In this document: positions 21,916-54,674 of the stretch, piece by piece
Layout: every line of letters starts with the position of its first letter
Position numbering within the stretch: the stretch's first letter is position 1
Assembly (NCBI GenBank): GCA_008632985.1
Contig: QPGO01000117.1
Coordinates: 62,001-126,000 of the forward strand
Direction: 5' to 3'
From: Psammoneis japonica
Taxonomy: Eukaryota
Length of the DNA: 64,000 nt
Program-made: the position numbers and the translations under genes
The notes under the pieces: generated by a model
The model's input: the letters and a program-made list of their open reading frames with translations, nothing else
Told to the model about the DNA's origin: nothing
Database searches by the model: none

Positions 21916-22709
21916 GGTTGCAAGTTGTTGGCAGCTCCGCTGTTGTACTTTAGAGTGTGTTGAGTGTGAGAAATGGCAATCTCGGCGGTGTGCGGTGTGC
22001 GGTGTGCGGTGTTCGCAAGATTCTGCTCTCACCACAAAAGAAATTCTGCTCTCACCACAACGTAGCAACGTACCGAGCTCCTTCGTAGAAAAAGTGCATT
22101 CTTTACCGAAACGGAATCTCACTATCAAGGTTTTTGTGCAAACGCCTCTCGACGAGGTCGCAAAGGTTTATTTACTCTGTGTATTGTGTATTGAGAAGAG
22201 CGCCTGAACGCAGCATTGTGCATTGTGGTTTTTGATCCCATGCCGTTGGCCGCATCGTTTATACTTTGCGGATGCGGCTTCATCCGTTGTCTTTCATGGC
22301 TCGGATCGTTTGTTTATTGTATTGAGAAGAGCGCCTGATTGTTGCATTGTTGTGGGGAGTGTTGTCATCGCATCAAAAAGGCGTTTTTGCGACACTGCTT
22401 TCGTCATTGTGGTCGTGCTTGGAACTGACGGCATTTTTTGTTTTTGTTGTTGCTTTGAACAGCTTGGTCAGAGGACACATTTACCATGAGTGAGTGACCA
22501 TGTCGAAAGCGAACACCATCAGCTGCAGCAGCATTGTCAGAGGACAATGACATCGACGTGAAGAAAGCAAGAGCAGAGCGCTCCGAGAAACAGGGCAACA
22601 GGAAGGAACTGCCACCTGAAGATGACAGTTCCTCTAGTTCCTCGAGTGGATCTGTCCAAGACATGCCTCACCATTGCTTCAAAGATTCCGAGGGTAGAAG
22701 AAGAAGCAA

Positions 22710-22915
22710 ATCAAATGCTGTCTAGCGTGTCGCATCGAGTGCAGCATCGCGTCGGATGCTGTGCATCCCGTCGGACCGTCCACAGCATTGTGTCGGATGC
22801 CAGCCACAGCACTGCATGCAATGCCATCTGCAGCATCATGTCGGGTGCTGGCTGTTGCATTGCATTGAATGCTGTCTGCATTGTCATGTTGAATGCTGTC
22901 TGTTGAATGCTGTCA
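22710..22915. repeat. Degenerate tandem repeat, about 24-bp unit (gaatgctgtctgcagcattg-like)
   Basis: Recurrent aatgctgtc / ggatgctg / gcagcat units. Confidence 0.55.
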
Positions 22916-23037
22916 ATCGCGTTGCACCAGAAGCCATCTGTCGAGTCTCGTCGAAAACTGAGTGACTCGGAGGGAGTGACTCACTTGCAACCAGTTTTAG
23001 ATTGGATGATTCCATGCCACTCAGTGCTTTAGTTTCT

Positions 23038-23202
23038 TTGTTCGATGCCATTCTAGATTCCACACCGGCACTGCTCTAGGTTGTTTGTTCAATGCCACCC
23101 TAGATCAGACACCACTCTGGGATCTTTGTTCAACACAACTCTAGATTCGACACTGCTCCAGGTTCGTTGTTCAATGCCACTCTAGATTCGACAATGCTCT
23201 GG
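23038..23202. repeat. Tandem repeat, 4 copies of an about 41-bp unit
   Basis: ttgttcaatgccactctagattcgacactgctc... starting at 23038, 23085, 23126 and 23167. Confidence 0.85.
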
Positions 23203-23318
23203 CACCAATGCAATCATGCAGTGGCATTGTTGACTCTAGAGCATCTGTTTTTTTCCACATTGCTGGTGTCCATCCCAATGAAGATCCACACACAATGGCG
23301 CAGTGCAAATGCCGTCCC

Positions 23319-24011
23319 TCATGGTGCGCCATTCCTCTTGCAATTTTCAAACTCCTGGACAGAAGCTTGCCATTCATCAAGCTTCTTCTTGTTCCTCTGT
23401 GCAACATTTCGATTTTTGTTTGGCTCATCCACAGAAAAATGTCCACATCGAACACATTGACAGCGCGCTTGGTCATCTGGCAGGTGTCCGCCGACAAGAA
23501 ACTTCCCATCGTGCTCTTCGGCCGTCAGGGGCACGACCACAGCCTGATCTTGATGCAAAGCAGTGTGATGAGCTGCATTTCTTGCTGACAATGCAATGTC
23601 CCTTGCTTGGCTGACAGCCTTTGTGATTGGGTCCGCCTGCCCGGCACGAGTGGCGCACTGCAGTTCTCCTTGCTTCCGCGCACGATCAAGCACATCATTC
23701 AAATCTGGCAATGCCGTTGCCATGGGCACTGCTCCAAAACTGGTCTCATTTAGCACAGCAACGGTGGAAGGAATGCATTTCCTGAACGCTTTGATGTCGT
23801 GGGTGTTCTCCACACCAATCCTGTTCTCAACTTCCGCCTTGTTTGTCATGAAGATCTCGATGACCTTCTTCTTCTCTGCCACCGCACCACAACTCGGTTC
23901 CCCCAGCTTGTCCAGCATTTTATCCCTCGTGGGACCATCCACATTGTCATGCTCGACAGTGTCACGTGGAGTTTCGGCATTTGATTCCCGTGCATGGACA
24001 CGGTTGTGCAC
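23319..24011 (-). pseudogene. Decayed ORF carried inside the MULE
   Basis: 230-aa protein-like ORF with a CxxCGH motif, no Tyr, no ATG start, TA-depleted. Confidence 0.45.
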
Positions 24012-24387
24012 AGCGTTTGCTTGCCATGGTCGACAAGAGACCTCGAGTGTGTTTCATGCGTCTCGGCGTCGGAGAGGTCGATCGAGATTCCGTTTTGGTG
24101 AAGAATGCTTTTATTCTACAAAGGAGCTCGGTGCGCTTCTACGTTGTGGTGAGAGCAGAATTTCTTTTGTGGTGATGGCAGAATCTTGCACGGTGTTCAG
24201 GCGCAGATCTTTCCACTGTGCGCACAAGCTTCGTGAGAAATTTGTGCACCAAAACAAATGCAAGCCAGCCGAGCCCAAAATTTCTCGCACCACACACTCA
24301 GCCACGCAGCGCATGGCCTGCACATTAACAAATTCAGTGGGAAACAGAGGACAGAGGGGAGGCATCTGTCACCATGTTGGGTGAACA

Positions 24388-24390
<3 letters not shown>

Positions 24391-24419
<29 letters not shown>
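24391..24419. repeat. (TGA)n microsatellite
   Basis: tgatgatgat... about 10 units. Confidence 0.95.
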
Positions 24420-24420
<1 letters not shown>

Positions 24421-25672
24421 CTGTGGAGATCTTTCTGCCAAGCAGGACGAGATGCTGCAGCAGTGACCTCAGCAAAGCCACAGTGTGCCACACAATCGCG
24501 GGATCACCTGCAGCTTGCAGCTCCAGCTTTGCAGGTGCAAGTGCAAAACAACCAAGGCATCCATTGAGGACATGCAACCTCCTCCCTTGCTTCAGCTGCT
24601 GCTGCAGACTGGGAGGGAAAAGAGAGCCCACTCTTGAAGCAGCACAACAAGCTGGCAGAAGAGGTGGGCTCTTGTGCAAATTTGACCAAGCAAGCATGAC
24701 CACAGAAACCACATTTTGCACATGCCTGTGTGCAATGTGTCCTCTTGTTCAATTTTCCATTTTCTCTCTAAAAATGATTTCTGTTGTGGATGTGGTGGCA
24801 GAAGTCAACAGCAGCAGCACAGGTCATGGCGGGGGTGGCAGACACACGTGCCAGCTGTGCTTTGCTTCTTGCACCCCCTCTCCTTTGTTGAACTGCATTC
24901 TCCTGAGCCAGGTGAGAATTGGCAACCCCAACATTGCTTTGTGAGTGCCTCCTGTGAACAATGAGTTGAAAGTTCATCCCAACACTGAGCCTGCTGTCAG
25001 CACCAGCCTCTTTGCCGCACAGCTCCTGATTGTGAAATGGCAGCCTTTTGCATCCCCCACCAGCCCATTGACAAGGACCAAGCTCATCTTGTCACACACT
25101 GGGGTTCCAAGGGGGCAAAATTTGCCTTGACCCTGTGCCCCATGGAGCCATGTTGGAAAAGGCATGAACAATGTCATGGGCAACACTTTGGTGTGGCTGA
25201 CTTGGCAAATGTTGAGTGCTGGAGAGCCCATTCTTTCTCATGGTGCAAATGCAATGACACCCTTTGAGAGCCTTCTTGTTTTCTGTGCCCATGTGCTTGC
25301 AAGACAGTTTCCACAGTTTGCAGCTGAAACAGTCTGCCCTCTCCTGTGTGTCAGTGCACACAGAATGCAGAGCACAATGTTCAACAGAGCCATCACAACA
25401 AAGACAGTCCCAGCAGTTGTTTCAACTTCTGCTTGCGTTGGCTTCTTGCATTGCAAATCCTTTGCATCATGGGTCGCAACCGCCCACATGGCGTCTGCAA
25501 AGGAGGGTCTGGACACCACTTCGATCAAATCGGCACAAATGGCGTCTTCGCTCAACTGTCGTTGAGCATCATTTACAAAGTAAGTGGGACTGGTGTTATC
25601 GCACTCTTCTTTCCAACACAGTGCACAAAAAGTCTGCAATGTTCCATAGAAGTCTTTTTGGACGTGTTCCAC
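24420..25672 (-). pseudogene. Decayed gene whose 5' end has normal composition and whose body is TA-depleted
   Basis: ORF 25238..25672 begins with Tyr-containing sequence (DFYGTL, PTYFV) then becomes Tyr-free and Cys-rich, and breaks. Confidence 0.4.
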
Positions 25673-25792
25673 CCGATTGATTTACCGGTGCGCTCGGACC
25701 GAGAGAACATTAAAATCCAGAAAGCAAAACATTTTATAATAATAGATCTAAAAATATTTCACGCCAGGATGGGAATTGCATTGAATTTATCT

Positions 25793-28700
25793 CTAGAAGT
25801 GCAAGTTACTGCCAAATTCTCCCCCCAATTCGTAGGATTCTGATCCGGGTCCACGTAGATGGTCAAACACTTCACTGGGGGCAACCGTGACAATCCACTT
25901 TCGTTCAGAAGGCGTTGTCCCCTCCATGCGGCGAAATCCCTTTCGAGTAATCGTATCTTCATCCAAATGTGCATCGTAAAAGTCGGATCCCAATGGGTTG
26001 TCAAAGTAAAAAACATACTCCACTCGTTGGTTTGCCTCCTCGATGGTATCAAACGACGAATTGAATTCCTTCTCCGGTCCGCCCTCGTAGGCATCATAAT
26101 TATATGAGCTCCATACGGTATATTTCAGCTTCTTCTTTGGGTTCAAATGTCGTTGTGACGGTTTGCAAATTTGCTTCCCGACGCGCTCCAGGACGTCCTC
26201 TGGTTCGGGCGTTTCGTTGTATCCCATGCCGTAGCTCCCGCGTTCGGTCTTGTTGGATTCTTCGTCCTCAAGATAGTCAATGACCTCACTGGGAATAACC
26301 GAAACGGTCCACCTCTGGCTGTCAGGGGGCGCCACTTCCATATAACGGAAGCCTTTCTCACTGACCGTATCTTCGTCACAGTTCATTTCGTCAAAATCAA
26401 GTCCCCACGGATTGTCAAAATAGAAAACATATTCCACGCGGCGGTTCGCTTCCTCCATCGTATCAGACGACGAATTGAATTCCATGTCCGGCGGACCCTC
26501 GTAAGAATGCCAGCCATCATTATCGTAGCCACAGGAGGACCAAACGGTGAATTTCACTTTTTTGTTTCTGTCCACGTGGCGACTGGGTGGCGCACGTACG
26601 TTTTGTCTAAAGCGTCTCAACTGAGAGGCATTCCTTCGTTCAAACTCTTCCTTTGCTCGGAGGGCTTGCTGTTCCTGTCTTTCTCTTGCTGCTCTCTGTT
26701 CCGCTTCATACTGACGCTGGAGGGCGGCATCTCGTTCGGCCATTTCGGTGTAGCGTTTGTCAAGCTCTTCCGCTTTCTGCTCGGAATCCATTGACTCCAG
26801 TTCAAAGCATCCACGGCAAAGATCAAAATTGCACTCTTCACAGGTAAGGTATGGTGTGCGACTGCACCAGTTTGCATAAATATGCGGGCACTCGCACGTG
26901 GCGACGTTGCTACGTTTTTTCCGAGTCCCTTGTGCCGGAAGACATCGGAGCTTTGAGGAGTGCGCCAAGGGGTGGCAGTGAGCATTCGGGCACACAACAT
27001 TATGCAGTAACTTTGCTTCGAGGTCACGAGCTTGGATGACTTCTGAATGAGCCTCCCACGCCGTTCCAACCCCAAGGTGTGCCAAAAGATCCGCCAACTT
27101 CATCTTGGAGAGTCCTATGAATGAAGGGTCACGAGTGCGGACTTCTTCTTTCAGCTGAAGTACTGTCAAGGCGGGCGATATAGCAGGAAGGCCATCTTTG
27201 GTCCTCAACATCTCCTTCTTCTTTTTCTTCGGAGGTATCATGGGAACTACATCTGGTACCTCGATCCGTCCTGAAGCAAAGGCTCCTATACCGTGAGTCG
27301 ATAGTTCAGAATCTTGCACAGACAATACTCCACGATCGTTGTTCTCTGTCTTGGAACCTACCGCTTTTCGTGCTACCTTAGGGTCACTCTCAACTTTGAT
27401 CGGTCTAGGACCAGTGGCGGCCATGGGTGCAGACTTCCTTGCTGCTTTCGTCGCAAACTCATGCTTGATAGACTTTTCGGCTTTGGACGCAGGCTTCTTT
27501 GCAGCACTATCAACTTTGATCGGTTTTGGCCCCGCAACGGCAGATGACTTCCTTTCTAACTTCGTGGCCTTGTCAGGCTTGGTCGGTTTTCCTACTGGAG
27601 ACTTTGCTTTGACAGGGATCTTCTGTCTTTTTTTGGTTGACTGTACGGCGGGTGGTTTGGATGAAGCATTCTTCTTCGCGGCCTTTGTATCATTCTTCGT
27701 AGGCTTTGACAACGTTTTGGCCTTGCTGGAAGCCGAAGCAGTTTTCGTCTTGTTGGGCATCGCCGGCGGCGGTTTCGGTTTGGAGCCAGAAGCAGCCATC
27801 GACATGCATACAGAACCGCGTCCCAAATGGCCAATGAAAAAGTCCTTGTTTTTGTTGGAAAGACCTTTCATACCAGGATCGCGAGCAAGGCATTCAGCGG
27901 ACAGCTGCGCCAGTGTCATGGAAGAGGAAACTGTAGGAACTCCTGTAAAATCGAACGACTGCCACTCTGGTGCCGTCATCCAGATCGATCCAACACCAAG
28001 TGCTTCCAAGAAAAAGCCTTTGTTCTTGTTCGACAGTCCTTTAGTGTCGGGATTACGAGACAAGAGCTCACAGCTGAGCTGGTCGCGGGACATGGAAGAG
28101 GAAACAAGAGGAAGACTTGCAAGTTGAAGCGAAGCCGACGAGGACTTCCCTGGTCCCTCTCTACGACTAGATGCGTCCTTCTTGGGACTTTTTCTACTGG
28201 AACTGACATTTGTCTTGCTTTCCGCGCTGCGCTTCTTGACGATGAGACTCGCTGCCGGTTTCTTAGTACTGGAAGAGGCATTCGGCTTCGCCGAAGTTCC
28301 AGCTGCCTTGATCCAAACGGAGCCGACTTTCAGGTGATCCAGCAACGCGTCCTTGTTCATGCTAGAGATACCCTTCATAGCAGGATCACGAGCCAAGCAC
28401 TCCTCACGGAGTTGTGCGACTGTCATATCACTCGTCACACGAGGGAGCGCGGCCTTGTTGCTTTTGCTGGGAGACGGCGAAGGGGAAGGGAAGGCAGCCT
28501 TTTTGCCTGGCTTACTATTCTTGCTTTTCGCCAGCCATTTTTTGAATTTCGTGGTTGATACGTTTCTAGGAACATACCAGCGTTTCACTGGGGCATCCCA
28601 TTTTGCCCCTAAGCTCTTAGCTTCATCCTTCTCGTCAAAGGAGCAATCCAGATACGTGCGATGAAGCCAGCGATTAAAAGAAGATACGGAACGAATGTTG

Positions 28701-28805
28701 TCTGGGACATACCACTTGCGCTCCGTGGCGTCCCAACATGCGCCCAGCCTTTTGGCTTCGTCTTTTTCTTCAAATAATGGGCAATCCAGATAGAGGCGGG
28801 ATAGT
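25793..28805 (-). CDS. Large repeat-containing protein: 2x DUF5710-like, 4x ~45-aa helical repeat, ZZ-like Zn finger, 2x C-terminal repeat (start codon unresolved)
   Basis: The frame stays open upstream of ORF 25793..28588: RLYLDCPLFEEKDEAKRLGACWDATERKWYVP...RTYLDCSFDEKDEAKSLGAKWDAPVKRWYVP. Also LPxVSSSMTxAQLxxExLxRxP repeats, CEECNFDLCRGCF, and two KxTVWSS...EFNSSxDTxEEANxRVEYVFYFDNPxG units. Confidence 0.8.
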
Positions 28806-28911
28806 CCTAGACTTTACCGATTACAAGACAACAAGCATTCATTCGACTGAAAAGAAAATGAAAAAAATCGCCAATCATCTCAAATGTATCAAATTTTATC
28901 TCAAACGTCTA

Positions 28912-31900
28912 AAAACAAATCGCAATCCATCATCATTTTTGACGTGAATGTTCATCGAAACAACAAAATCGCCAATCCTTTTCAATTCAGCGACACACCG
29001 TTGCCTCAAGGGATCGCGCATCCCAACCTCTCAGATCAGCTCCAGGCGTCCCCAGTGGGAAGATGGCGCGGGTCTGTCACTTCACAAGTGCTGAAGGGCC
29101 ACAGTCAAGTCTGACTCCTTCTCCCCAGACAGTGTGCTGCACTTTGCCCCATGCCATTGCCAAAAGAGCACCGCCAAGATGACAGTGGTGGAAACGGCAC
29201 CAGATTCCATCAACCACACAGTGTCCATTTTCTCATTCTAAAAAATTCATCTCAAACATCTCAAAAAAGAAAATCACCACTCGGACTGGCATTTTTTCGT
29301 CGACATTCTTCTCCATGATGTGCACATGTGACATGAACAGCAGCGACATCTTCGCACAAATTTGTTGCACAAATTGTTCTCTGTGTGTTGGTGTGGTGGC
29401 AGGCAGCATGTTCCAGCCAGGGGGGGTAGCTCAAAACAACTTTGTGTGGAACCTGGAGTCACGCACACATGTGTTGTCATTTGTGCAGCTCAGCAAAGAA
29501 GACATGCTCCAGCTCTGGGTGGGGTCTCACACTGCGGAACTGTGACATTGTTGTTTCGCTGACCAATGACCAACCTGTGGGCAAGTGGTTGAGAAGTTTT
29601 TTGTGTGCACTCATGTGCGCGTGTGTGCAAGTGTGTCACCCTCAAAAACCATTGAAAAAATGTGTGCAGATTGTGCAAAATCTGCGTTGTTGTTGGAAGC
29701 TTGCACGTGGTGATGTGCAGCAGGGGCTCCAGCAATGACTCACTCAAGAGTTCTGATGGGGTCAGGAACTCACAAAATGGCTCTTCCTGTGGAAAGGATG
29801 GAACTTTGTGCTGTCAGTTGTGACATTTTGCCTTCCTCCATTCATGAATGCTGTGGACAATGTGCAGCAACATTGTCAGCACATGTCAACTGCCACTTGG
29901 CTTGCATCATCATTTTCAGAGCATTTCTCAAGTTTCACATGTGTGCACATGCCTGACAGCATGGGATGTTGCACTGAGCAGTGGACAGTGCCTCCCCCCC
30001 AAAGGGCTCATTTTTGAGTTGTGCCACATGTCATGCACGTGCATTTCCATGTGACTTTGGTGGTGTTTTGCAGCATTTTGCAGTGCAACTGTTGGGCTCC
30101 TGTCTGTTTGGCAACTTTCAATATTTTTTGTGCAGTGCAGTTCTCAAATGTCTGAAGAATTGTGAGGTGCAGGTGGATTTCAAAAACAGCAAGCACATTG
30201 AGAGGCGCAATTGCACCACAAACTCGGTTGTGCGTTTGGACATCAAGGGCAAATTTGCCCATCAACCAACATGTTGAGCTGTGGAGCTTTGGTGCATGAA
30301 GAATTCTGTGGGCCCATGTCATGTAGAGTCCTGCCTGGGTGGGGCTGGAGGAACATGCCCAAATCAGCCACAGGGGTGCACTCACAACACTGCAGTGATC
30401 AGCAACGGCACAAATCATGCTGCTCCCACACCAAAAGCATTTTTGTTTTGTCAGTGCTCTGATGATCATGCCACTTCCTTGTGTGATGACACCAGCCAAA
30501 CAACTCTCACATTGATGAGTGCAAGAAGTGCAGCTTGGTTGGCACAGTTTGATTGTCACATGCATTTTGACAACAAGGGGCAGGACAAAACTGTGGTCTT
30601 TTGTTCTTGAAGTCTGGAAAATGTCACGGCTCTTGTTCAGAATTCACACTTGCTTGACAAGAATCCTGTGTTCTTAACAAGCACCAATCAATTGTGCACA
30701 AAGCAATTTTGACAATCTTTCCAACCTTCCAAGTGGGGCTCAATGCTCAAAACAAAAAATGGCCCTAATTCTCCATGTTTGATCTTGACAACAAGATTGC
30801 AGCCACAATGATTTTGAAATGATTCAGCTCATGTCTGCAATTAAAGTGACCTTCTAAACAGGAAATGATGGTCAATGAAATGTCTTGACAAGGGTGCAAT
30901 TGTGACTGCTTTCCAACATTGCTCATTTCTGACAATGACAACATTCATTCATCTCATTGAGACGCTTGCACATTGGCTGTGTGCAGCTTGCAATGTGATT
31001 TGTGCTGGCCATTTTTTATCATTTCCACAGTGAACATGTTTTTGCTTCCTGTTTCCTGCTCTTCCCTCTTTGGCTTTGTCCTGTCTCTCTGTCTCCTGCC
31101 AGTGCTCCCATGCTGCAGTGATGGTGTGATGTTTCACTGAGTGCACTGCCCCTTGCGGCTGCTCTTGCTCACCACAACCACGTTGTTTGTTCCATGTCAT
31201 GACCTTGTCTTTTTTGCTCATCACACCAGATTGCCAAAGCTTTGGCTCTGCAAAGAAGAGAAAAGAGCTTGCAACAGATCAGAGCATTGCATGTGTTTTG
31301 TTTCAACTGGGCTTGGCTTGGTGCAAACAGCATTTCTGCTCACCTTTGCATGCAACCTTGTCTCTTTTGTGTTTTGCACTGGTTTGCCAAAGCATTGCCT
31401 GCAAAGAAGAGAAAAGAGTGTGCAACAGATGAGAGCATTGTGTGTGTTTTGTTTTGAATGTGCTTGGTGCAAATGCTGTTTCTGCTCACCTTTGTGTGGC
31501 CCCTGCAGGGCTTTCTTCCCTTCTGGCTCCCCTTGCATGTCAACATGTCATTTGCTTGAAATCTCACGGCTGTGGCCCAACCACATCTGGTGCAGAAGCA
31601 AGCCATCAAAACAATGTGAGCGGCATGTTGCATGGGCTGAACATCACAGCCTGCACCACAATGAGCAAGAGTCCAGTTTGCAAGTGAGTGCATTTTCTCC
31701 AAAAAGCAAAACATCATTTTTCGGACAAACAACAAAAACAACAGCTGTGCTGCAAGAAAAAGAGTGTCATGGCAATGACAACAAGATGCGCATGTGATGG
31801 GAACATTTGACAACATGCAATGAATGTCATGTGTCAGCGCCAACTGAAAAAGTGATGATTTTCGGCTCATTCAGTTTTGGACAGAAATGAACAAAACAGT

Positions 31901-34800: not shown

Positions 34801-35640
34801 CTTGCGGTACCATTTTCGACAGTAAAAACATAACAATTTACAAATAATGTGTTGTTATGGGTACATACAGAATTGTCTTGTGCGTGTACCCATGTATTCG
34901 AAACTGTTGATGGACTCAGTTGTTAGTCGCTAAATTGTACCGTAAGTTGAGAGCTCGAATTTTCCGATGAGCGATTTATATATGCCTAAATGTAACAAGA
35001 AACATATAAAATATTATTAATATATATAAATTAAGTCTTTAACATAGCATAATTAATATTTTGTTTATATACGCAAATACGAGTTACACTCAACGGATCG
35101 AATAAAGCATACGTTGATTGATAAGTTTAGGACGACGTGAGAAGAAGTGTAGCTCAGCCCACGCAATGGCGTCGACTTCGGACCATTTTTCACGGTTTAA
35201 AAGGCATAAACGATTGATACACTTGAATCAGTCGAATATATTGAGGAAATATACATGGTAATAGAAAAGAAATGGTCCTTAGAGGCAAATTGTGAGTGAA
35301 TAGAGGCTCAATTGTTGTTGCTGACAGATTTAGCATTATTGTGCCGCGCTGCAGCCTTCAACAAGCATTTTCACTATTGTTGTTGATGACACAGACTATA
35401 TCAAATACGTAGATCCTGGTCATGACATTCAATTTTCCATAAGGCTGAAAAAAGTGGGCCGTCATGGTCACTGAAAGCCATGGCCGGTTTGGCTGTTTGT
35501 TTGTTCGAGTTTATTCTGTTTATTTTACTTAGAAGCCATTGATATGATCAATTTTATTAAATATGTACGGTGTTCAATAAAGCATTAAAAAATTATTTTT
35601 TCTGCGAAAAGGGGCATGTGCCCTAAGTCTGGAACAAGTC
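34730..35640. mobile_element. AT-rich non-autonomous TIR element (MITE-like), 911 bp, 4-bp TSD GGGT
   Basis: GACTTGTTCCAGACTTGGG (34730-34748) vs CCTAAGTCTGGAACAAGTC (35622-35640), 18/19 inverted match; GGGT at 34726-34729 and 35641-35644; similar subterminal motif; no ORF. Confidence 0.8.
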
Positions 35641-35682
35641 GGGTGATGCAGGCCATGTCACTTGATTCTTGCTGCAAGGCCA

Positions 35683-35959
35683 TGACAGGATTTGAATAGG
35701 ATTTGGGTGCGCGCGAAGTATCGCGCGCTGTTTAGTTTACCGCACACAGTTTTGTGTGCTTTAGTTCCGCGCGTTCACGCGCGATGTAGTTTGCTTTCGA
35801 GCCACAAGGCTCACAAGAATAATAACAGTAGCCCGATTATACCGACTTACACGTCTTTCGGCTCCTGTAACGGTCTCTGAGCGGAGACTCATCTGCTATT
35901 TAGACAGCAGCAAGGAGTTGTTGTTTTGAATTCTTGCCATTTGCCTTCAATTTCTGTCA
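35683..35959 (+). repeat. 5' LTR (277 bp)
   Basis: Direct repeat of 42507-42782; retains 15 TA sites. Confidence 0.97.
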
Positions 35960-36898
35960 GATTGACAGTCTTGCTCATTGTCAACCCATTGAGCAACCGC
36001 CATCGTCGTCGTTGATTTACCAACGACGCTATTTCAATCCCACGTGGACCTCCGTATGTGTTCTACATACATCGGCAAGTCTGCGCGCATTCAACACCAG
36101 GGCATCGGCAGGAAGTTAACGTCACCGTCAAGTCTCCTTGCCGCTGGATGTCTGGATTGATCACACTGCCTTTGATCGCTGAAGACACACATTCAACAGT
36201 CACATCCAAGTCTGTCCTTGATCAACATCCCTTGACACACCCATTCCTCGGTTAACGGTCAAGAACCCTGCATGTTCAAGGATCTCAGTCGCTGAAGACA
36301 TGCACACACACACACATCTTCACGGCCAAGAACCTTTGCCCACTCTTCGGACTGCGGTTTTGCCACCACTCTACAAGCACACCAAGTCCATTGCACCTGA
36401 TCTACCCCGGACTGCTGGTGCTCCACAGTTCTGCTGGGTCCACGAGGACGACTGTGAGAGCAAGTGGCCGTGATTGCAGCCTGCGTTGGGGCGAGGGTGC
36501 TTTCCCGCGTTTGTTCGTTCGTCCACAGCACCTGACGCCTGCGTCAACTGGCCAGCCTGATCGGGAAATCCAACCGATGTAAAATGAGAACGGTTCGGGG
36601 GTCTTGTCCACCTCTGGTCAGCTCACCCGCAGGGGTTTGCAACCCGCCACTCCGCTCGCAAGCAACCCAAAGCGCCGCCAGCTGCGGGTTCGGACGTGCC
36701 GGCACAACTCTGCGGACCGGATGGGAAGTTTGGCACTTGACAACGAACGGGATGGCAAAGCCCGGCGACTTCTGATTTTAAGACAGTTCAAGATTTCAAG
36801 TCAAGTCTGTTTCAAGTCAAGTCCATTCTCACCCAAGTTTCGAGTCTACCTTCGCTTCCCAACCAGAATTGATTGTCCTGACACCACTTTTGTCCACC

Positions 36899-39800: not shown

Positions 39801-42559
39801 GTTCGCCCGCCCACACATGGCTGCTGGCACTCATGTGCGTGTGCTTCACACTCAACCATGCAGCGTCCCCATGTCTCCACTGGCGCACGCCCCTCGAGAC
39901 TCTCACTGGATCCACCCCGGACATCAGCCCATTGCTTCGCTTTCACTGGTGGGAACCCGTGTGCTTCCACCTCGATGACTCCGATTGGCCGTCCGAATCC
40001 CGTGAGTTGCGTGGACGCTTCGTTGGCATTGCTGAGCACGTCGGCCACCAGATGACCTTCAAGATTCTATCTGACGAGACTCAGAAGATCCTCCACCGGT
40101 CCAACGTCCGCTCCGCCACCCCCGATCCTGCCGTTCGAAACCTGCGTCTTGATCCTCCTGATGGGGAGCCACCTGAACCCATCATCAAATCTTGCCATGA
40201 CGACAACCCCGTCGATTCTCCTGATGGGGAGATCAGGACACCCAAGATGCCAGTTTTCGATCCGCAAGACATCATTGGACGCACCTTCCTCATGCAGCCA
40301 CAAGAGGACGGACAACGCCACAGAGCTCGCATCGTCAAGGCCGTCGAAGACCACGAATGGAAAGTGAACGGCAATCCCGAGCTCACTAAGTTCGTCTGCT
40401 CTGTCAACAATGACGAATGCGAGGAAGTCCTTGCCTGCAATGACATCATGAATCACATTGAGCAAGAAGATGAAGACACCACCATTTGGAAATTTCGACG
40501 CATCGTGTCACACGAAGGACCTCTGAAGCCTCACGACCCAACCTGGAAAGGCTCAAGCTACAACATCATGCTTGAATGGGAAAGTGGGGAGATCACGTCC
40601 GAGCCTCTTGCCATCATCGCCAAGGACGACCCCGTCACCTGTGCCATCTATGCACGAGAGAACGGACTCCTCGACACGGATGGCTGGAAGCGGTTCCGCA
40701 CCATCGCGAGGCGCCAAAAGAAGCTGTTTCGCATGGCCAACCAAGCCAAGCTTCGCTCCTTCCGCACTGCACCTCGCCACAAGTGCGGATGCGAAGTTCC
40801 CCAGAACTGCAAACACGCCATGTCACTAGACGAACGCAACGGCAACCGCAAGTGGGGAGACGCAACTGATCTCGAGATGGACCAACTCGACGAATACGAA
40901 GTCTTCCATGACTGCGGGCCCTTCAAGTCTTCCACTCCTCCTGCGGGACACAAGAAGATCCGAGTGCACCTGGTGTGCGATGTGAAACACGACGGTCGCC
41001 ACAAGGCACGACTCGTAGCCGACGGGCACCTCACGGACGTACCTGTCGACAGTGTCTACTCCGGAGCAGTCTCCCTCCGTGGCCTTCGGCTGATGATTTT
41101 CCTGGCCGAACTCAACGAGTTGGAGACATGGGCCACCGACATTGGCAATGCCCACCTTGAAGCCACCACCAAGGAGAAGCTTTACATTGTAGCTGGACCC
41201 GAATTTGGCAAACTCGAAGGACACATCCTTGTCATCCACAAGGCACTGTATGGACTGCGCAGCTCCGGTCTCCGCTGGCACGAGCACTTCGCCGACTGCC
41301 TGCGAGCTGAAGGCTTCTTCCCCTGCCGCGCCGAACCCGACATTTGGATGCGCAGGAACGGCGACCACTGTGAATGCATTGCCGTTTATGTGGATGACCT
41401 CGCCATTGCCATGAAGGACCCTCAATCTTTTGTCGACACTCTCACGGAAAAGTGCAAGTTCAAGCTCAAGGGTGCGGGACCCATTGAGTTCCATCTGGGT
41501 TGCGACTTTTCCCGGGACCCCGACGGAACCTTGTGCCTGTCTCCGCGCAAGTGCATCGAGCGCATGGTTGACAGCTGTGCCCAACTGTTTGGGGAGAAAC
41601 CTGCCACCAATGCCCTGTCACCTCTAGAGAAGGGTGACCACCCCGAACTGGACACTTCCGAACTGCTGGGACCCGATGGCATTCACAAGTTCCAGTCTCT
41701 TGTTGGTTCACTCCAATGGGCAGTGTCCCTTGGTCGAATTGACATTGCCACGGCCGTCATGTCACTCTCTAGCTTCCGAGCTGCGCCCCGTCAAGGCCAC
41801 TTGGATCGTGCCAAACGCATCTGTGGGTGCCTCTCCAAGATGCAACACGGTGCTCTCCGCGTTCGCACGGAAGAGCCCGACTGTTTGGATCTCCCTGCTC
41901 TGGCCTGTGAATGGATGCATTCCGTGCATGGTGAAGCAGAAGAGATGATCCCGAAGGACGCTCCACCGCCCCTTGGCAAGTTCGTCACTGCCACCCACTA
42001 CGTCGATGCAAACTTGTGCCATTGCATGCTCACCGGACGCTCTGTCATGGGAATGCTCCACTTCCTCAACAAATTCCCGGCTGATTGGTTCTCTAAGAAA
42101 CAAGCCACCGTGGAGACTGCGACCTGCGGGTCTGAATTTGTTGCCGCAAGGACTTGTGTTGAGCAGATTGTCAACCTGCACATCACCCTGCGCCACCTTG
42201 GCGTCCCGATCCGCAATGTCAGTTACATGTTCGGTGACAACAAGTCAGTTGTAGACAGTGCCACCATCCCGCACTCCAAGTTACACAAGCGACACACCGC
42301 ACTGTCGTTCCACCGTGTGCGTGAGGCAATTGCCTCTGGTTGCCTTGAGCTCCACTTCATCGAAGGCTCCCGCAACCCTGCTGACATTCTCAGCAAGCAT
42401 TGGGGTTGCTCCCAAATCTGGGACCTTCTCCGCCCCCTCATGTTCTGGAACTTCATTCCATCCAAAGTCGAATCTGTTTCTGTGGCTCCTCAAGCAAACT
42501 GGGGAGTGACAGGATTTGAATGGGATTTGGGTGCGCGCGAAGTGTCGCGCGCTGTTTAG
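36899..42559 (+). pseudogene. gag-pol polyprotein, one frame with a single internal TGA (37619-37621) and many Tyr->Cys/His substitutions
   Basis: ATG 36899 (MVLTRQ); protease LVDRGANGG; integrase ...SEPHQQHQNFAERR; RT KARLVADGH, KALYGLRSSG, YVDD; RNase H DNKSV, NPADILSK. ORFs 36869..37621 and 37730..42559 share a frame. Confidence 0.93.
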
Positions 42560-42782
42560 TTTGCCGCACACAGTTTTGTGTGCTTTAGTTCCACGCGTTC
42601 ACGCGCATGCAGTTTGCTTTCGAGCCACAAGGCTCACAAGAATGATGACAGCAGCCCGGTTGTGCCGACTTACACGTCTTTCGGCTCCTGTGACGGTCTC
42701 TGAGCGGAGACTCATCTGCCATTTAGACAGCAGCAAGGAGTCATTGTTTTGAATTCTTGCCATTTGCCTTCAATTTCTGTCA
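42507..42782 (+). repeat. 3' LTR (276 bp)
   Basis: Direct repeat of the 5' LTR; only 4 TA sites left. Confidence 0.97.
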
Positions 42783-44545
42783 GGCCAAAGCACCCAAAGT
42801 GTTTGTGGCTTGGTCAGAGTTGGTCCAGCAGACCCCAAGGAGTGCTTTTTTGCCTGACCCACAACTTTTGCAAAAGGGAGGGTTGCTTTTTTTATTGCTT
42901 GCAGGTGGATTTGACATGGTGCTGTGTGCACTTGCCAGCCCAGCTGCAAAGTCAAGTGCAGTTGGCATGGAGTGGTGCCCACCTGCCCCCACTCTCTCCT
43001 GATGCCTCATCCACTGCAATTTGAAACCAAGCAACATGCTTTTGACTCAGGATCAACAAGCATTGCCAGAAAAACATTGTGGTGTGAGCATTGCCAACAG
43101 CAGACAAGAGCACACTGGAGAAACTTGAAGCCACAGGTGAGCATGCTCTGGGTGAGTTTTCCCCTCCTGCAGAGTTTGCCCCCCTTGTGTGTGTGCAGTT
43201 TTGTGACACATTTCCTCTCTCACCTCCACTCTTGGTCTCAATGCCAAATTGAGACACATGGCTCCAGAGGTCATTTGGCAAGTGCTTCATTTAAGAAATG
43301 TCAACACACGCAGCTTTGGGGAGCCCTCTTAAACCAGCTGATTTCAAGAGAGATTCTGTTCTTGACACTCACACACTGAGGCTCTAATGATGCATGTGGC
43401 ACAACACGCAGCTGCAGAAGGTGTTGGGTGACACAAGATTGCAGTTTTCCTCTCCCAAAGAATTCAGGAGATCATTGCATTGTGCTGGCATCAGGACATT
43501 GCAGTGGCTCTGGCTGACACAGCCAGTGTCATCTTGTGCTGTTTTTTTTAGTTTGGTGTGGTTCCAGCATGTCTGTTGTGGCATCCTGTTCATGATTTTT
43601 CTTTTTGAAATGTCCTTGACGACATTCTCAAACATGTGTGTGTGCACACTCCAGCCATTCAACAGCTCTTCTTGACCAGCACCAAGGTGGGTGCATGTGT
43701 CACAATCAACTGACAATGTGCGCAACAGAGCCCATGCATGGGACTTGCTGGCAAAGTGCAAACAGACTGTTTGGCACTGGCGTGGCAAAGTTGCACAATT
43801 GACTTGTTTGGTGCAAGCTTCAAAGGATGGGTGCAGGTGTCAGGCACGTGTCTTTGACATTGTCATTGCAACTTGTTTTGTTTGGCTGCTGCATGCACAC
43901 TTCAGCAATCTCCTCTGGAGAAAGGTCTTTTTGGAGCATGGTGTGGCAGCATCTGCAGAAATTGTGCGGTGTGCCATTGCTGGACTGTGGTCACCTCTTT
44001 TCTGGAAGCTGCCTGCCCATCTCTCAACAGCAAAAGCAAGCCATGTTTGGTGCCTTTTCTGCAGAGCAGGTGTCACAAGTTGTGAAGTTGTCTGGTTTGG
44101 CAAATTTGCATTTTTTGTCAAATTTTCCACCAGGTCCCCCAGTTGTGCAGCTTCTGTGCTGATCAACCATGCACATGTTTTGTCTGTCTGTTCACTTGTC
44201 TTGTGCACACACTTGCTGGCATGGAGCAGCTGGGTCTCTTGAGAGCTTCATTGCCATGTGGTGAAGAACAATGGCAGCTGGAGAGGAGCATGGTGCTTTC
44301 ACTCTTGGTGACAGATGTCAGCATGTTCTGCAGAAAGTGGCAGCTGTTTGATCCACACATGTTGCCCAAAGTTGAGTCAGAATCTTTGCCTTGAGCACAG
44401 AAGAATGAGGCACTCACCACTTTAGCTTCCCCCAGAACTTTCTCTGTTTTTATGAACACACCTTTGTGCAAAGGACAGAGGCTTGCCAGTGACCCAATGA
44501 CACAGGTTGGCAGTCTCAGTCACACAAGATGTGGCTGTGTGGAGA

Positions 44546-44853
44546 GACTGGGTTGCACCAGCCACAGAGCTGCAGATCTCTGTTGTCCTCTGTGGTGCCT
44601 GGGTTGCACCAGCCACAGAGTCTTCTGTGGTGATTGGGTTGCACCAGTCACAGTGTCTTTTCTGCACTCTCAACTCTGTGCTGGTGACTGGGTTGCACAC
44701 TGGTTGCAGGATCTTCTGCATTCTGCGGAGACTGGGTTGCACAAGGTGCAGTCTCATCTGATCATTTGCTGTGCAAATGCATGAAATGAATGCTTTTGCA
44801 TCCCTTTCAAATGTTCTGGTTTCTACAGCAACTGGGCTGCACCAGTCACAGTC
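44546..44853 (+). repeat. Six dispersed copies of a ~22-bp quasi-palindrome GACTGGGTTGCACCAGTCACAG
   Basis: Copies near 44546, 44597, 44631, 44685, 44728 and 44829 with irregular spacing. Confidence 0.8.
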
Positions 44854-45609
44854 TCTTTTTGACATGTGCAAATGCTGCCAAAGAAATGATCTGGAATGTT
44901 TTTTTTTCAATTTTGAATTTTTCCACATGCTGTGGGTGGGGATGTTGCAGAAACGATGAAGAAACAAATTTCCTCAAATGAAAATGAGAGTTGTCTTGTT
45001 CAACAGAGGGTGTTCAGAGGTGCTTGGAATGGGGTGCAACCTTTTCATTGGCACTGCATCATTTGTCCAGATCAAGAGAGCAATGATGAAGTGACAGCCA
45101 TTTTTTCATGCTTCACTGTGCATCATGACTGAAAATTGTTGATTTGTTGCACGATGACTCACTTGCAGTTTTGGAGTGTCATTGCAGTTTTTATGATGCC
45201 AACAGTTGCCAACATCAAAAGCAGAAGCTCTCACATCTCCAACCATTCATCTGCCATGTCAACTGACTCTTCAGTTGGAGAGAACATGAAACAGCATTTG
45301 TCTCAGCTTTGCCACACTTCACCCCACAAAAATCAGCTGAGCACAAAAATGCATGCCTTTTTTGTGGCAAAACTGTGGTCACATCCAACAAGCACAAATT
45401 GAACCACACATTTTTTGTCCTTCTTCCTGTTGTCTTTTCCATGCTCAGAATTTCCCAGCACCCCCTTGGAACAGCAACCCATTTCATCCCATGCTGCAAG
45501 GAAAAAGAGAGCTGCCAGGAAACTGCCCAAATGGCCCCATCAGGCAATGCATCCATCTCCCACAAACTCTGGACTGTGCATTTCTTGGAGCCCCCCAATT
45601 GCTGTTGTG

Positions 45610-46150
45610 AGACAACTCGAGATGAAGCAAGATGAGCAGACATGAGATGACACCACTCGACCACTCAAGACAAGACCACACCACTGCAGATGAGACAAGA
45701 TGACTCAAGACAAGATGGTGCCACTCAAGATGAGAAGACACCACTTGAAACAAGATTGTGCACTGCTCTGGACAAGATGAGATGACACCACTTGAGAGAA
45801 GCAAGCTTGAAGCAAGAGGATGACTTGAGACATGACAACAACACTGGAGATGCAATGACACCACTCAATTCAGGATGAGATGACTCAAGACAGGATGGCA
45901 TCACTCAACATCAAAAGAGCTCCAGATGCTGCGATGCCACCTGAGACAAGATGGCACCACCTGAGACAGAAGCAACAAACTCCTTGAGAAATGAGACAAC
46001 TCAAGACATGAGCGACAACAACGCGGGATGCAACAACAACACTTGAGATTGGATGAGATGACTCGAGACATGATGACATCACTCAAGGTGCAATGAAACC
46101 ACTCAGACGTGGCAACAAGCCACATGAGACAAATCAAGACACAATGTTGC
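45610..46150 (+). repeat. Degenerate satellite (gagatgacaccactcaagacaagat-like)
   Basis: Recurrent gagatga / caccactcaaga / gacaagat words over about 540 bp. Confidence 0.75.
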
Positions 46151-46483
46151 ACGACACAACAACAACACACTGGGGCAGCATGGGCGGTGCACGCATGCAC
46201 GCATGCATGCATGCACTCTGCTGCATTGCAGTGTCCATCCATCTCACCCATGCAAACCACACCATTGCTCACATCGTCGCACTTCTTTTGTTCCTTGTTC
46301 TGCTGCAAAATGTAAAAGAAGATGACTCACACATCCACAATGGCAAGCAATGAGTTTGCCTTCCAGTTGCAAGAAACATTTGCTGCATTCAACAAAGAAA
46401 GTGTTGGATTTGTGGGCTGTTCATTGCAAAGAAGCACAGCAACTTGTCATTGAGATTGTCCAAAATGCTGCCCCCGTTGATTG

Positions 46484-47525
46484 TCACACATTGGTGAGTG
46501 CAAGGGTGCCAGGAAAACCACGCTGCTCCACCCAGTCCTTGAGGCTCAGATCTTTCTCCTCTTCTGAATTGTCAGTGCCAGATGGCACAGAGGATGAGGC
46601 CAGCAGCACGGAGACAGCAAGGTCCTCCAGTTTGATTGTTGGAATTGGTTGTCCCTCGGCTTTGGCCTGTGCTTTGAGATGTGCCTTGTACACTTCCACA
46701 ATGACAGCCACATCCTTCATTCCTGTGACACTGTTGATGATGGGCAAAACATTTGGGCTCATGTGTTCAAGGTTGCGCAACATCATCAACAGAACATGGT
46801 CAAAGAGAGCTTGAGCATCTGGCTCCAAAACCTTGTCCATTTTGCTGAGCATGTCTTGCACCATCATTCAAGTCTTGATGCATGAATGGGGAGCATCTTC
46901 CAGACATCTTCACTCAGAGCAAGGTGCTTGCAGAAGGCCTCCTCAATGGCAGCGGGGTCACTGAGAGCAGTTGGCTCCGCATCAACCCGGCTGTCCCTGA
47001 ACCAAAATCTGCAACATTTGATCTTTGCACTTCTTTCATCGAACACACTGCATGAAGTGGACACTGCTTCCAATGAGGAGGTTTTGTTGGACCATTGTCA
47101 TGCTGAAGAGGACAGGCTTTTGCTGGACTTTTCAAGTCCACCATTGGGCTGTGCACAGCTCCACTGATCAAGTTGTTTTCCTGACAGTGAGTGCTGCTGT
47201 TGCTGCACACATGCGCTGCCACATGCCCATCGATTTGTTTTCTGAGAAGGCATCAGGTTCTTTGTGTCCCTTTGGATTAGTTGCTCAAGATCACAGTGCT
47301 TTGCATCATCAAGTGCCGACACTGTTTGCAATGACACTTTGGTTGTGCCAGGCAGCAGGGGGAAAGCTTCTTGACCTCCTCATTCAATGTTCGACAGTCA
47401 CCACTTTTGACTTCTTTTTCATCTAAAATATTTTCCAGAGAAGCATCATTCAAAGGCTGAGGACCCAGTTTGAAAAAGGCAGTGGTTTGGACAACGGACA
47501 TGGCTGATAAGATGAGCTGCTCCAC
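46484..47525 (-). pseudogene. Decayed protein-coding gene of unknown family
   Basis: Consecutive protein-like fragments (47277..47525, 46864..47073, 46484..46867) broken by stops and frameshifts; nearly Tyr-free. Confidence 0.5.
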
Positions 47526-54453: not shown

Positions 54454-54674
54454 GGTTGGGGTTATTGACGAAACAAGCCAGAAAGAAGAAAATGTGAGGA
54501 AACCCTTTTTCGGCGAAGCGCGTTGTCACATTCCATTTAAATTTACTTATTCGTACATTTATGAATTATAAATATGATCAAATACAGTTGTGAAAGCGAT
54601 CAATTCAAACGACACACTCAACGTCTTGTTGGGATTGTACCATACAGGCGCATGTGCTTCCCACGATCGAAAAT

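Follow-up and report, generated by a model that had tools for sequence, protein, structure and literature searches.

A candidate TpA-specific transition hypermutation of transposon-derived and relic DNA in Psammoneis japonica

To our knowledge, the described systems that hypermutate mobile DNA, namely repeat-induced point mutation (RIP) in filamentous fungi, APOBEC/AID activity and the decay of methylated CpG, all remove C:G pairs. RIP recognizes duplicated length and hits all copies above a length threshold; it requires a homologue of the RID-type DNA methyltransferases and takes place before meiosis. ADAR editing changes A to G at the RNA level only, with a neighbour preference for U or A on the 5' side and G on the 3' side. 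The TadA/ADAT tRNA adenosine deaminases and the base editors derived from them favour an A preceded by T or U. We know of no other deaminase family with this context, and of no natural TadA/ADAT member that mutates chromosomal DNA. Published work describes the C:G to T:A change of RIP, typically CpA to TpA, by which TpA is created and AT-rich DNA is made (the RIPCAL paper, PMC2621366, and others), a diatom DNMT4 that is reportedly related to RID and has no known function (PMC9998398) and the APOBEC editing of LTR retrotransposons (PMC4866542).

The window analyzed here, a stretch of 64,000 nucleotides of P. japonica (assembly GCA_008632985.1, contig QPGO01000117.1, positions 62,001 to 126,000 of the forward strand; coordinates below are those of the window), resembles RIP in its dense, transition-only and dinucleotide-specific hypermutation, found in transposon-rich DNA beside intact genes and ending at sharp borders. 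In contrast to RIP, TpA is destroyed and G:C gained, which is the opposite direction; one of the two LTRs of a retrotransposon is spared, and two of the affected blocks, B and C2, exist in a single copy. The preliminary description called the change repeat-targeted, a term that finds no support in an equally repeated 5' LTR that is spared and in single-copy blocks without a recognizable transposon protein. We favour, with a probability of roughly 0.55, a TpA-specific transition hypermutation of transposon-derived or relic DNA that spares the adjoining genes and is superimposed on a slower decay of CpG to TpG/CpA. In the literature searched, no description of a TpA-erasing hypermutation of DNA was found.

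TA and CpG content of the blocks and their neighbours

The observed/expected ratio (o/e) of TA, the expectation being taken from base composition, was 0.11 in 22340-25600 (block A), 0.04 in 28900-34800 (block B, placed at 28900-34754), 0.16 in 36100-42500 (the Copia part) and 0.05 in 42500-47500 (block C2, placed at 42788-47400), as against 0.52-0.56 in the flanks and the gene at 25700-28800. The same four intervals contained 19, 14, 47 and 12 TA where 101, 217, 159 and 173 were expected at the flank level. TG and CA reached o/e values of 1.3-2.0 and, in blocks A, B and C2, which carry no strand assignment, were about equally frequent. In 200-nt bins the borders fell at about 22400, 25400-25600, 28800-29000, 34800, 36100-36200 and 47400 and were approximately 200 bp wide. 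These values bear out the TA-poor, sharply bordered blocks of the preliminary description, and the absence of TA that it noted at 31021-32263 extends over 31017-32264 (1247 nt). The span that it flagged (22340-47500) does contain these blocks, but 34755-36150, the 5' LTR included, is an unmutated island within it. The first part of the island (island Z, 34755-35677, also without strand) is AT-rich (GC 0.37), with TA o/e of 0.83 and CG o/e of 1.21, and is moderately repeated in sequencing run X1.

CpG was depleted as well, a loss overlooked in the preliminary description. CpG o/e was 0.17 in block B, 0.20 in block C2 and 0.51 in block A, where the loss peaks at 24400-25400; depletion was strong in the relic blocks, the young Copia element (0.88) being excepted. 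In blocks A, B and C2 the losses of TA and CpG end at common borders, and since CpG is depleted there, part of the TG/CA excess is ordinary-looking CG to TG/CA change. Such change, with CG o/e of 0.17-0.20 in B and C2, resembles the decay of methylated CpG, as does a CGA to TGA stop among the changes private to the Copia copy. However, TA loss is separable from it, being present in Copia at a CG o/e of 0.88 and absent in relatives at 0.01. CpG decay is frequent among environmental relatives of the element, and extreme CpG loss occurs with normal TA in L001 (CG 0.01, TA 0.49), L017 (CG 0.02, TA 0.67) and L010 (CG 0.08, TA 0.67). Decay of methylated CpG would explain the CpG half of the signature only.

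The neighbouring genes were ordinary, as had been stated. Host genes beside the blocks have normal TA at silent positions, and TA is likewise normal, silent positions included, in a spared ORF of 1006 aa with two DUF5710 domains (25793-28813, reverse strand) between blocks A and B. A Pfam search of the 105 ORFs of at least 75 aa in blocks A, B and C2 and the island yielded none that reached the cutoff; no protein family was recognized in block A and no retroelement or other transposon protein in the blocks, and the claim that DNA transposons were hit was not upheld. The transposon origin of blocks A, B and C2 is thus putative, and this counts against the reading favoured here. The satellites reported earlier are tandem arrays that do exist but are short (2-4 copies); block C2 has degenerate 20-nt tandem units at 45660-46106. 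As for gene remnants, a host gene piece is indeed affected, but it is just an inverted 106-nt copy of the CCT-zeta 5' region (24084-24189, forward strand; source 22015-22120), with 11 differences: 2 TA to TG, 2 CG to TG/CA, 4 transversions and 3 other transitions. When only longer proteins were searched, the closest named matches of CCT-zeta were from oomycetes (61% identity).

Local duplicates inside the blocks differed by 16 TG/CA doublets in 500 aligned nt, whereas duplicates within the gene had none over 242 nt. Both strands are therefore hit in the blocks, in agreement with the preliminary description. A runs test revealed no strand-coordinated tracts (z = 0.28 in A, -2.65 in B, 1.52 in C1 and 0.77 in C2).

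The Copia element and the direction of change

The sequence at 35683-42782 is a Ty1/copia LTR retrotransposon with TG..CA LTR ends, a 5-bp target duplication and an RVT_2 reverse transcriptase, and it aligns full-length to Copia polyproteins. On the forward strand it comprises a 5' LTR (35683-35959, ends TGACAG...CTGTCA), a leader whose first 191 nt (35960-36150) are TA-normal with 6 TA, a TA-poor interior (36151-42506; TA o/e about 0.16, CG o/e 0.88) and a 3' LTR (42507-42782), flanked by the duplication GGCCA at 35678-35682 and 42783-42787. The polyprotein frame (36782-42559) is open save for one TGA at 37619-37621, which is CGA in the rest of the Copia family. The 5' LTR is unmutated, with 15 TA (o/e 0.80) and 20 CG, compared with 4 TA and 18 CG in the 3' LTR. 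Eleven of the 15 TA sites were changed in the 3' LTR, to TG at 8 and CA at 3, and these account for 11 of the 19 differing columns of the alignment, 3 of which lie outside the LTR. The per-site rate at TA in the 3' LTR was about two orders of magnitude above background and about 10 times the CpG rate. GGCCA is intact on both sides of this single insertion with discordant LTRs. The composition of the two flanks switches sharply exactly at the insertion site; short of a rearrangement after insertion or a join made in assembly, this coincidence is unexplained.

Ten of the 40 conserved Tyr columns of Copia Pol are kept, 9 of them within the RT/RNase H half; 20 became Cys, 7 His and 3 Phe. Among 64 single-step Pol replacements 36 are TpA transitions (28 A to G after T and 8 T to C before A), and A to G after A, C or G accounts for 3, only one of these after A. 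The LTR pair and Pol agree on the direction first proposed, TA to TG or CA, i.e. A:T to G:C, and a T on the 5' side of the changed A is strictly required. Transversions at TA are few. TA survival was 0.02-0.03 at ATAT, ATAC and ATAG and 0.31-0.41 at TTAA, CTAG and CTAA, RTAY sites being nearly erased and YTAR sites surviving best; an additive one-flank model accounts for these figures.

Clustered transitions fixed in retroelement copies, a strand bias and a context motif recall APOBEC and ADAR editing. However, APOBEC/AID changes are G to A and C to T, whereas the TA component here is A to G and T to C. ADAR-type editing would give A to G on one strand with both LTRs alike, whereas here the LTRs differ and the blocks are hit on both strands; moreover, a 5' T is obligatory and survival is highest where a purine follows. 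TadA/ADAT resembles the TpA change in motif only.

The common borders of TA and CpG loss in the blocks could also reflect a side effect of DNA repair in methylated regions, in which the frequent processing of deaminated 5-methylcytosine leads to long-patch error-prone synthesis, an eta/iota-like polymerase mis-pairs at T:A and A:T to G:C changes pile up where CpG methylation is dense. In agreement with this, the Copia copy of the window has at least 8 private CG to TG/CA changes where the family has CG, and the second phase of antibody hypermutation also shows strand bias at A:T pairs. On the other hand, a WA-type polymerase would also hit AA, which does not agree with the single A to G change after A beside the 28 after T; the scarcity of transversions at TA, the loss of Copia TA at a CG o/e of 0.88 and the normal TA of the CpG-poor relatives L001, L017 and L010 also make this explanation unlikely.

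Selection on composition was considered too, under which transposon RNA would avoid UpA and CpG, like the RNA of many RNA viruses, in addition to ordinary CpG decay. The relative L002, a contig from an unrelated metagenome, is the only one of 45 environmental Copia relatives with the TA-loss signature, which it has in a selection-filtered form; as an independent occurrence it favours TpA-specific hypermutation. TA per 1000 codons at positions 1-2, 2-3 and 3|1 was 21.2, 0.0 and 5.6 in L002, compared with 33-45, 10-54 and 43-81 in normal relatives; Tyr codons are kept while silent TA is almost gone, the Tyr losses are to His or Phe and never to Cys, and the loss is confined to the coding part, the LTR and leader being normal. 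Selection on dinucleotides would likewise retain Tyr codons and remove silent TA. For the window this explanation is largely refuted by disruptive, non-selected changes, that is, Tyr to Cys at 20 of 40 conserved columns, hits at non-coding LTR sites, a TA o/e of 0.04 in blocks without coding capacity and TG/CA doublets between paralogous sites, and we regard it as highly improbable. The pattern in L002 points to an arms race: elements that still work would escape by shedding the dinucleotide that is attacked.

Read evidence and the stage at which TA is lost

X1 is a public sequencing run whose platform is not on record and which is possibly the assembly's own sample. Its contigs were built from 31-letter words, and a depth of 61-67x needs accurate reads. 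They reproduced the TA-free blocks at 61-67x word depth, equal to that of the adjacent gene. One contig (6555 nt, depth 61.4) runs from 25800 to 30944, differs from the window at 5 letters and crosses the border between the gene and block B; others, at a depth of 60-67, extend over B and C2 and have 0-2 differences apiece, and both blocks are single copy in X1 at 90% likeness or more. The TA loss is present in accurate reads, which answers the check called for in the preliminary description and speaks against a basecalling artefact.

An artefact in the wider sense (modified-base basecalling, polishing of unique regions only or a chimeric assembly) would draw on the unrecorded platform, the possibly common sample and the junction near 36150, which sits in a repeat of over 1000 copy-equivalents, a setting in which mis-joins arise easily. 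It is nevertheless very improbable, since the X1 contigs reproduce the TA-free blocks across the gene border, the unrelated contig L002 has the signature and the sequences behave as evolved ones, with family-wide sharing and selection filtering in L002. A mis-join near 36150, if real, would remove the LTR argument and leave the blocks unaffected. X1 also contains a joint from 36736 to 34730 that hints at another arrangement.

The Copia family is very large, 3840 of 13400 compared contigs being at least 99% like the window, and most of the interior TA loss is common to the family majority. Over 37144-37979 the majority contig of run X3 had 19 differences from the window, at none of which the majority has TA and the window TG or CA. 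The interior losses common to the family majority thus predate the insertion in the window and are no proof of change in place. Copia also shows a sense-strand bias, with 36 A to G against 11 T to C (about 23% on the other strand) and 16 against 4 among non-Tyr events. The preliminary description had dismissed RNA or retro-copied editing because a strand bias would be expected; the bias and the family-shared loss weaken that argument.

These results would be accounted for by editing confined to the retrotransposition cycle, with A-to-I at UA in genomic RNA, or a lesion in single-stranded cDNA, fixed by reverse transcription. Elements would then arrive TA-poor, borders would be insertion borders, genes would be untouched, blocks A, B and C2 would go back to ancient elements of this kind and the LTR discordance would come from later recombination, conversion or an assembly join. 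The position of 9 of the 10 retained Tyr in the RT/RNase H half, the selection-filtered loss in the coding part only of L002, the composition border exactly at the insertion site and the odd X1 joint agree with it, and for Copia retrotransposition-stage editing is a serious rival. As an explanation for the whole signature it is doubtful. LTRs should be identical at integration, but 11 TA sites differ beside an intact 5-bp duplication, and the opposite strand carries about 23% of the events. TG equals CA approximately in blocks that lack a recognizable retroelement protein and whose local duplicates differ by TG/CA doublets; a 106-nt host-gene 5' fragment is affected; and YTAR survives best, unlike the 3' G preference of ADAR. 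In addition, the assembly and X1 differ by a TA/TG change and a doublet at single-copy depth. These are among 9 positions that differ over about 11.5 kb of single-copy sequence, some 3 kb of it normal gene; the 7 listed all lie in B and C2 (1 TA/TG, 2 forming a TG/CA doublet and 1 CG/TG).

Change in place is indicated by the discordant LTRs with intact duplication, the TG/CA doublets and the X1 differences, evidence that outside the LTR consists of small numbers only. The DNA-level process of the preliminary description keeps these small lines in its favour, but loses most of the Copia interior, where the loss is largely family-shared and the 36:11 bias fits RNA editing too. Along the lineage the LTR, with U3 inherited via the 3' LTR, stayed TA-rich as the interior was eroded, and a simple in-place model leaves this unexplained.

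A possible mechanism and its consequences

Under TpA-specific hypermutation, the relic blocks and the 3' LTR would have been changed in place on chromosomal DNA, and the interiors of Copia lineages would have been eroded by TpA pressure over many generations. The target domain may be marked not by the length or copy number of repeats but by another feature, plausibly silent chromatin or silencing-flagged transcripts. The chemistry would probably be enzymatic and take place on DNA that is briefly single-stranded or being transcribed: either adenine is deaminated in 5'-TA or, to the same effect, its partner thymine suffers a lesion that is read as C. In a working lineage such as L002 selection would filter the TpA damage; the Copia family of the window would lack such filtering, presumably since it is mobilized in trans. 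Hit elements keep long open frames because TA to TG/CA cannot make an in-frame stop.

Tentatively, a dedicated DNA-level mutator, an adenine deaminase or thymine modifier, might change A:T to G:C at TpA in silenced transposon domains, as a defence with polarity opposite to RIP that disables proteins, creates no stops and drives transposon lineages to purge coding TA. No TadA/ADAT-type deaminase gene is present in the window. Removal of TpA at about 100 times background would be a mutational chemistry new to the genome defence of eukaryotes, and such a mutator, if real, might provide a natural source of enzymes that edit adenine in DNA. Relic blocks of this kind defeat homology searches, and RIP-style indices point the wrong way on TpA-erased DNA. 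Since long ORFs are kept where no stops are created, gene callers will mistake dead transposons for protein-coding genes.

Extent and content of the TA-poor blocks

TA depletion was measured by a sliding profile and by 200-nt counts. Block A (22340-25600) showed a TA observed/expected ratio (o/e) of 0.11, with 19 TA against 101 at flank-level expectation; the corresponding values were 0.04 and 14 against 217 for block B (28900-34800), 0.16 and 47 against 159 for C1 (36100-42500), and 0.05 and 12 against 173 for C2 (42500-47500). Both flanks and the gene at 25700-28800 gave 0.52-0.56. The o/e of TG and CA in the depleted blocks reached 1.3-2.0, the longest TA-free stretch was 1247 nt (31017-32264), and block borders were resolved to one to two bins of 200 nt. 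These results bear out the TA-poor, TG/CA-rich blocks with sharp borders of the preliminary description, which overlooked the accompanying loss of CpG in A, B and C2 (CG o/e 0.51, 0.17 and 0.20; 0.88 in C1) and an unmutated island, 34755-36150, within the span that it flagged.

The blocks are present in sequencing reads. The public run X1 contained 0.90 of 1060 words sampled from 25800-35799. No RNA run was listed among those containing the sequence. Over 25800-45799, the X1 contigs include one of 6555 nt (word depth 61.4) that crosses from the normal gene 2 kb deep into block B and differs from the window in 5 letters; contigs at depth 60-67 cover 31520-34758 (1 difference), 42758-44348 (2), 44330-44577 (0), 44552-45028 (1) and 45005-45799 (0). 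X1, whose platform is off record and which may be the same sample as the window assembly, thus reproduces blocks B and C2, the check proposed earlier against a basecalling artefact. Since 31-letter words at this depth need accurate reads, nanopore-type miscalling of modified bases is very unlikely to be the source of the TA loss; an artefact in general has specific evidence against it and is highly improbable.

Blocks A, B and C2 contain short degenerate tandem arrays, and in block A the 5' region of the neighbouring CCT-zeta gene recurs as an inverted copy of 106 nt (11 differences, a sample too small to weigh). None of the 105 ORFs of at least 75 aa in the island and in blocks A, B and C2 exceeded the curated Pfam cutoffs, all matches being at chance level; Pfam had also been run on 12 larger ORFs. 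In tblastn, five homologs of the Copia together with two proteins from the window located no additional Copia fragments within the blocks. A transposon origin of A, B and C2 is therefore unsupported, there being neither a protein family nor Copia similarity. The claim that DNA transposons, satellites and gene remnants are hit comes down to the CCT-zeta copy for gene remnants and to short tandem arrays for satellites, and lacks any transposon protein among the 105 ORFs. Self-comparison of the window gave no further copies fit for polarising changes, and tRNA and Rfam scans of the whole window gave no hits.

The genes of the flanks are ordinary housekeeping genes, none of which encodes a deaminase, dioxygenase or methyltransferase. 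In a search covering longer proteins only, the nearest named relatives of CCT-zeta were from oomycetes (61% identity), suggesting that the host is likely a stramenopile; the diatom host of the preliminary description was not supported by these relatives.

Between blocks A and B, an intron-less 1006-aa ORF at 25793-28813 (minus strand) stands untouched. It carries two N-terminal DUF5710 domains and an internal duplication (25952-26089 and 26366-26503), and a PDB sequence search with it gave no match. The TA-normal, AT-rich (GC 0.37) part of the island directly upstream of Copia, 34755-35677, has no protein family and is moderately repeated in X1 (word depth about 400-2000). At 2500-4500, over a 596-aa ORF without a Pfam family (2653-4443, minus strand), TA o/e dips to 0.24-0.38 with an AT skew of -0.27; the retention of CG (o/e 1.2-1.4) sets this dip apart from the hypermutated blocks. 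The window maximum of TA o/e, about 1.0-1.14, lies at 54000-55500 (CG o/e 0.73-0.76).

Direction, context and strand of the changes

C1 is a Ty1/copia LTR retrotransposon, with LTRs at 35683-35959 and 42507-42782 that have TGACAG...CTGTCA ends, a purine tract before the 3' LTR and GGCCA duplicated on both sides. It carries an RVT_2 domain, and its polyprotein frame aligns with public Copia proteins over about 1890 residues, the sole stop being a TGA (37619-37621) that is CGA in the rest of the family.

Pol was aligned with 30 homologs, and the window copy differed at 85 of the 723 columns conserved at 80% or more. One base change accounts for 64 of these differences, the other 21 needing at least two. 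The single-step changes fell into A>G after T (28 cases), T>C before A (8), transversions (17), G>A following C (5), C>T preceding G (2) and T>C preceding another T (1), with a single A>G for each of A, C and G as the 5' neighbour. A T is thus required directly 5' of the changed A, and the hypermutation is neither a general A>G nor a WA process. At 40 conserved Tyr columns, 10 Tyr were kept, 20 had become Cys (TAY to TGY), 7 His (TAY to CAY) and 3 Phe.

The LTR pair differed at 19 of 281 columns compared (3 of the 281 just outside the LTR), and at 11 of them TA in the 5' LTR corresponded to TG (8) or CA (3) in the 3' LTR. The 5' LTR has 15 TA and 20 CG, against 4 and 18 in the 3' LTR, and about 3 substitutions remain without TA and CG sites. 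Computed from these counts, a TA site in the 3' LTR was lost roughly a hundred times as readily as background sites changed and about ten times as readily as CpG. A change of TA to TG or CA never makes an in-frame stop, which accounts for the abundance of long ORFs in every frame; among stop codons in the blocks only TGA is still common.

Survival of TA (96 in 20,004 nt of depleted against 1533 in 41,402 nt of normal sequence) depended on the flanking bases. Relative to normal sequence and strand-symmetrised, it was 0.02 for ATAT and ATAG/CTAT, 0.03 for ATAC/GTAT, 0.09-0.10 for GTAC, ATAA/TTAT and GTAA/TTAC, 0.18 for CTAC/GTAG, 0.31 for TTAA, 0.36 for CTAG and 0.41 for CTAA/TTAG. An additive per-strand hazard with one flanking base fits these values (A 1.88, G 1.20, T 0.59, C 0.51) and fails to predict the strand hit. 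The 47 polarised Copia events comprised 36 A>G and 11 T>C on the sense strand (16 and 4 outside Tyr codons), with a log-likelihood of -25.6 for a 3:1 strand bias versus -32.6 for 50:50; two flank models of strand choice both fitted more poorly than the plain 3:1 bias.

Evidence on change in place and on change before insertion

Several observations argue for change in place. The two LTRs of one Copia insertion are discordant. Local duplicates within blocks show 16 TG<->CA doublets in 500 aligned nt (32 of 101 mismatches), as opposed to no doublet among the 55 mismatches of duplicates within the gene (242 nt); the doublets in the blocks show that an ancestral TA or CG was struck independently on one strand or the other. 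TG alternates with CA, and strand-coordinated tracts are absent (runs-test z of 0.28 in A, -2.65 in B, 1.52 in C1 and 0.77 in C2; about -1.4 in the flanks). Over about 11.5 kb of single-copy sequence, some 3 kb of it normal gene, X1 and the window disagree at 9 positions, and the 7 differences listed, all in blocks B and C2, include TA/TG at 29428, a TG/CA doublet at 29874-5 and CG/TG at 44954.

The Copia sense-strand bias of 36:11 is evidence against a purely in-place account of this element, as are the interior TA losses common to the family majority and the TA-rich 5' LTR, both described below. The main rival explanation, editing during retrotransposition, fits that bias, the sharing of TA loss across the family and the relative L002 described below. 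It is at odds with the discordant LTRs, with the strikes on both strands and with the single-copy differences, and we consider it unlikely, though less so than the other alternatives.

The Copia family is large. Summed word depth in X1 was 45,000-120,000 over the Copia bins (window 35138-43141), compared with about 61 for single-copy sequence, and of 13,400 contigs 3840 were at least 99%, 4563 95-99% and 4997 90-95% like the window; the family therefore amounts to the order of a thousand copy-equivalents. Runs X2 and X3 contribute little besides the family-majority contigs of X3, and the differences listed come from 40 of 223 rows. Among the rows listed, 19 positions distinguish the window from the majority contig for 37144-37979: 3 with window TA and majority TG, 8 in four TG/CA doublets, 4 with window CG changed to TG or CA and 1 with majority CG changed to CA. 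None of these 19 has TG or CA in the window against TA in the majority. The Tyr to Cys/His changes at 37652, 37895 and 37928 are absent from the differences and so are common to the majority. Most TA loss in the Copia interior is therefore older than this insertion, and the remaining differences point to more independent strikes after insertion in both the window and majority lineages.

The U3 of a 5' LTR descends from the 3' LTR of the parent. The TA-rich 5' LTR, followed by TA sites at 36018-36117 in the leader and few beyond, therefore indicates that erosion along the lineage passed over the LTR and the leader's first 190 nt. This sparing of U3 along Copia lineages is a puzzle, as is the sharp difference in composition, exactly at the insertion site, between flanks that were contiguous beforehand. 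A third puzzle is an X1 contig at single-copy depth 60 in which 36736 is linked to 34730 through 9 other letters, suggesting another arrangement of these sequences elsewhere in the genome or at the locus.

In host genes, TA per 1000 codons is 15-38 at positions 2-3 and 24-56 across the 3|1 junction; the Copia values are 6.8 and 6.2. Silent-site TA in host genes is thus normal, indicating no genome-wide pressure, and this too counts in favour of change in place. Compositional selection, with specific evidence against it, is a very improbable explanation.

Relatives and candidate mechanism

None of the 120 best public homologs was Tyr-poor (minimum 2.86%, against 0.85% in the window). The environmental relatives comprised 23 in metagenome contigs and 22 in genome contigs, the latter being eukaryotic contigs inside MAGs; L002 (1-3516) alone was TA-poor, with none among the 22. 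Its first 800 nt are TA-normal (9, 10, 10 and 6 per 200 nt), with 0-4 per 200 nt from the polyprotein start at 821 and almost no TA outside Tyr codons in the coding part. TA per 1000 codons at positions 1-2, 2-3 and 3|1 was 21.2, 0.0 and 5.6 in L002, 33-45, 10-54 and 43-81 in normal relatives, and 9.1, 7.0 and 5.9 in the window Copia. At the Tyr columns of the Copia protein homolog P0008, L002 has 15 kept, 0 Cys, 5 His and 7 Phe, and the window 12 kept, 30 Cys and 10 His. From its codon positions and Tyr residues, L002 thus seems to be a working lineage that evolved while exposed to this same pressure, its damage filtered by selection; the window's family looks to have taken the damage unfiltered. 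The 22 genome-contig relatives (L024-L045) are eukaryotic-type Copia polyprotein genes in records labelled bacterial or archaeal MAGs, probably eukaryotic contamination of the bins.

Five relatives with normal TA (o/e 0.49-0.67 over whole loci) were extremely CpG-poor, with CG o/e of 0.01 (L001), 0.02 (L017), 0.08 (L010), 0.09 (L012) and 0.10 (L043). CpG decay is thus frequent and can be separated from TA loss; in these elements, hypermutation or decay at CpG looks widespread across their hosts. Repair-polymerase errors secondary to methyl-CpG processing, as a source of the TA loss, have specific evidence against them and are a doubtful explanation.

The most likely account, to which we give a probability of roughly 0.55, is a TpA-specific mutator acting at the DNA level and confined to transposon or relic domains. 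Its chemistry could be adenine deamination at 5'-TA or a lesion on thymine that is read as C, and the substrate would most plausibly be transiently single-stranded or transcribed DNA. A transcribed substrate would give strand bias in the one-way-transcribed Copia but not in relic DNA. In its action the pattern resembles RIP or deaminase restriction of mobile DNA, but its polarity is reversed and it departs from the defining features of each. No description of TpA to TpG/CpA hypermutation was found in the full-text literature searched, whose coverage excludes most subscription journals, nor in the matching passages of two diatom papers (PMC2806351, PMC9998398). Diatom DNMT4 enzymes, of unknown function, are related to fungal RID according to PMC9998398, and DNMT4 may serve as a lead for the CpG component only.
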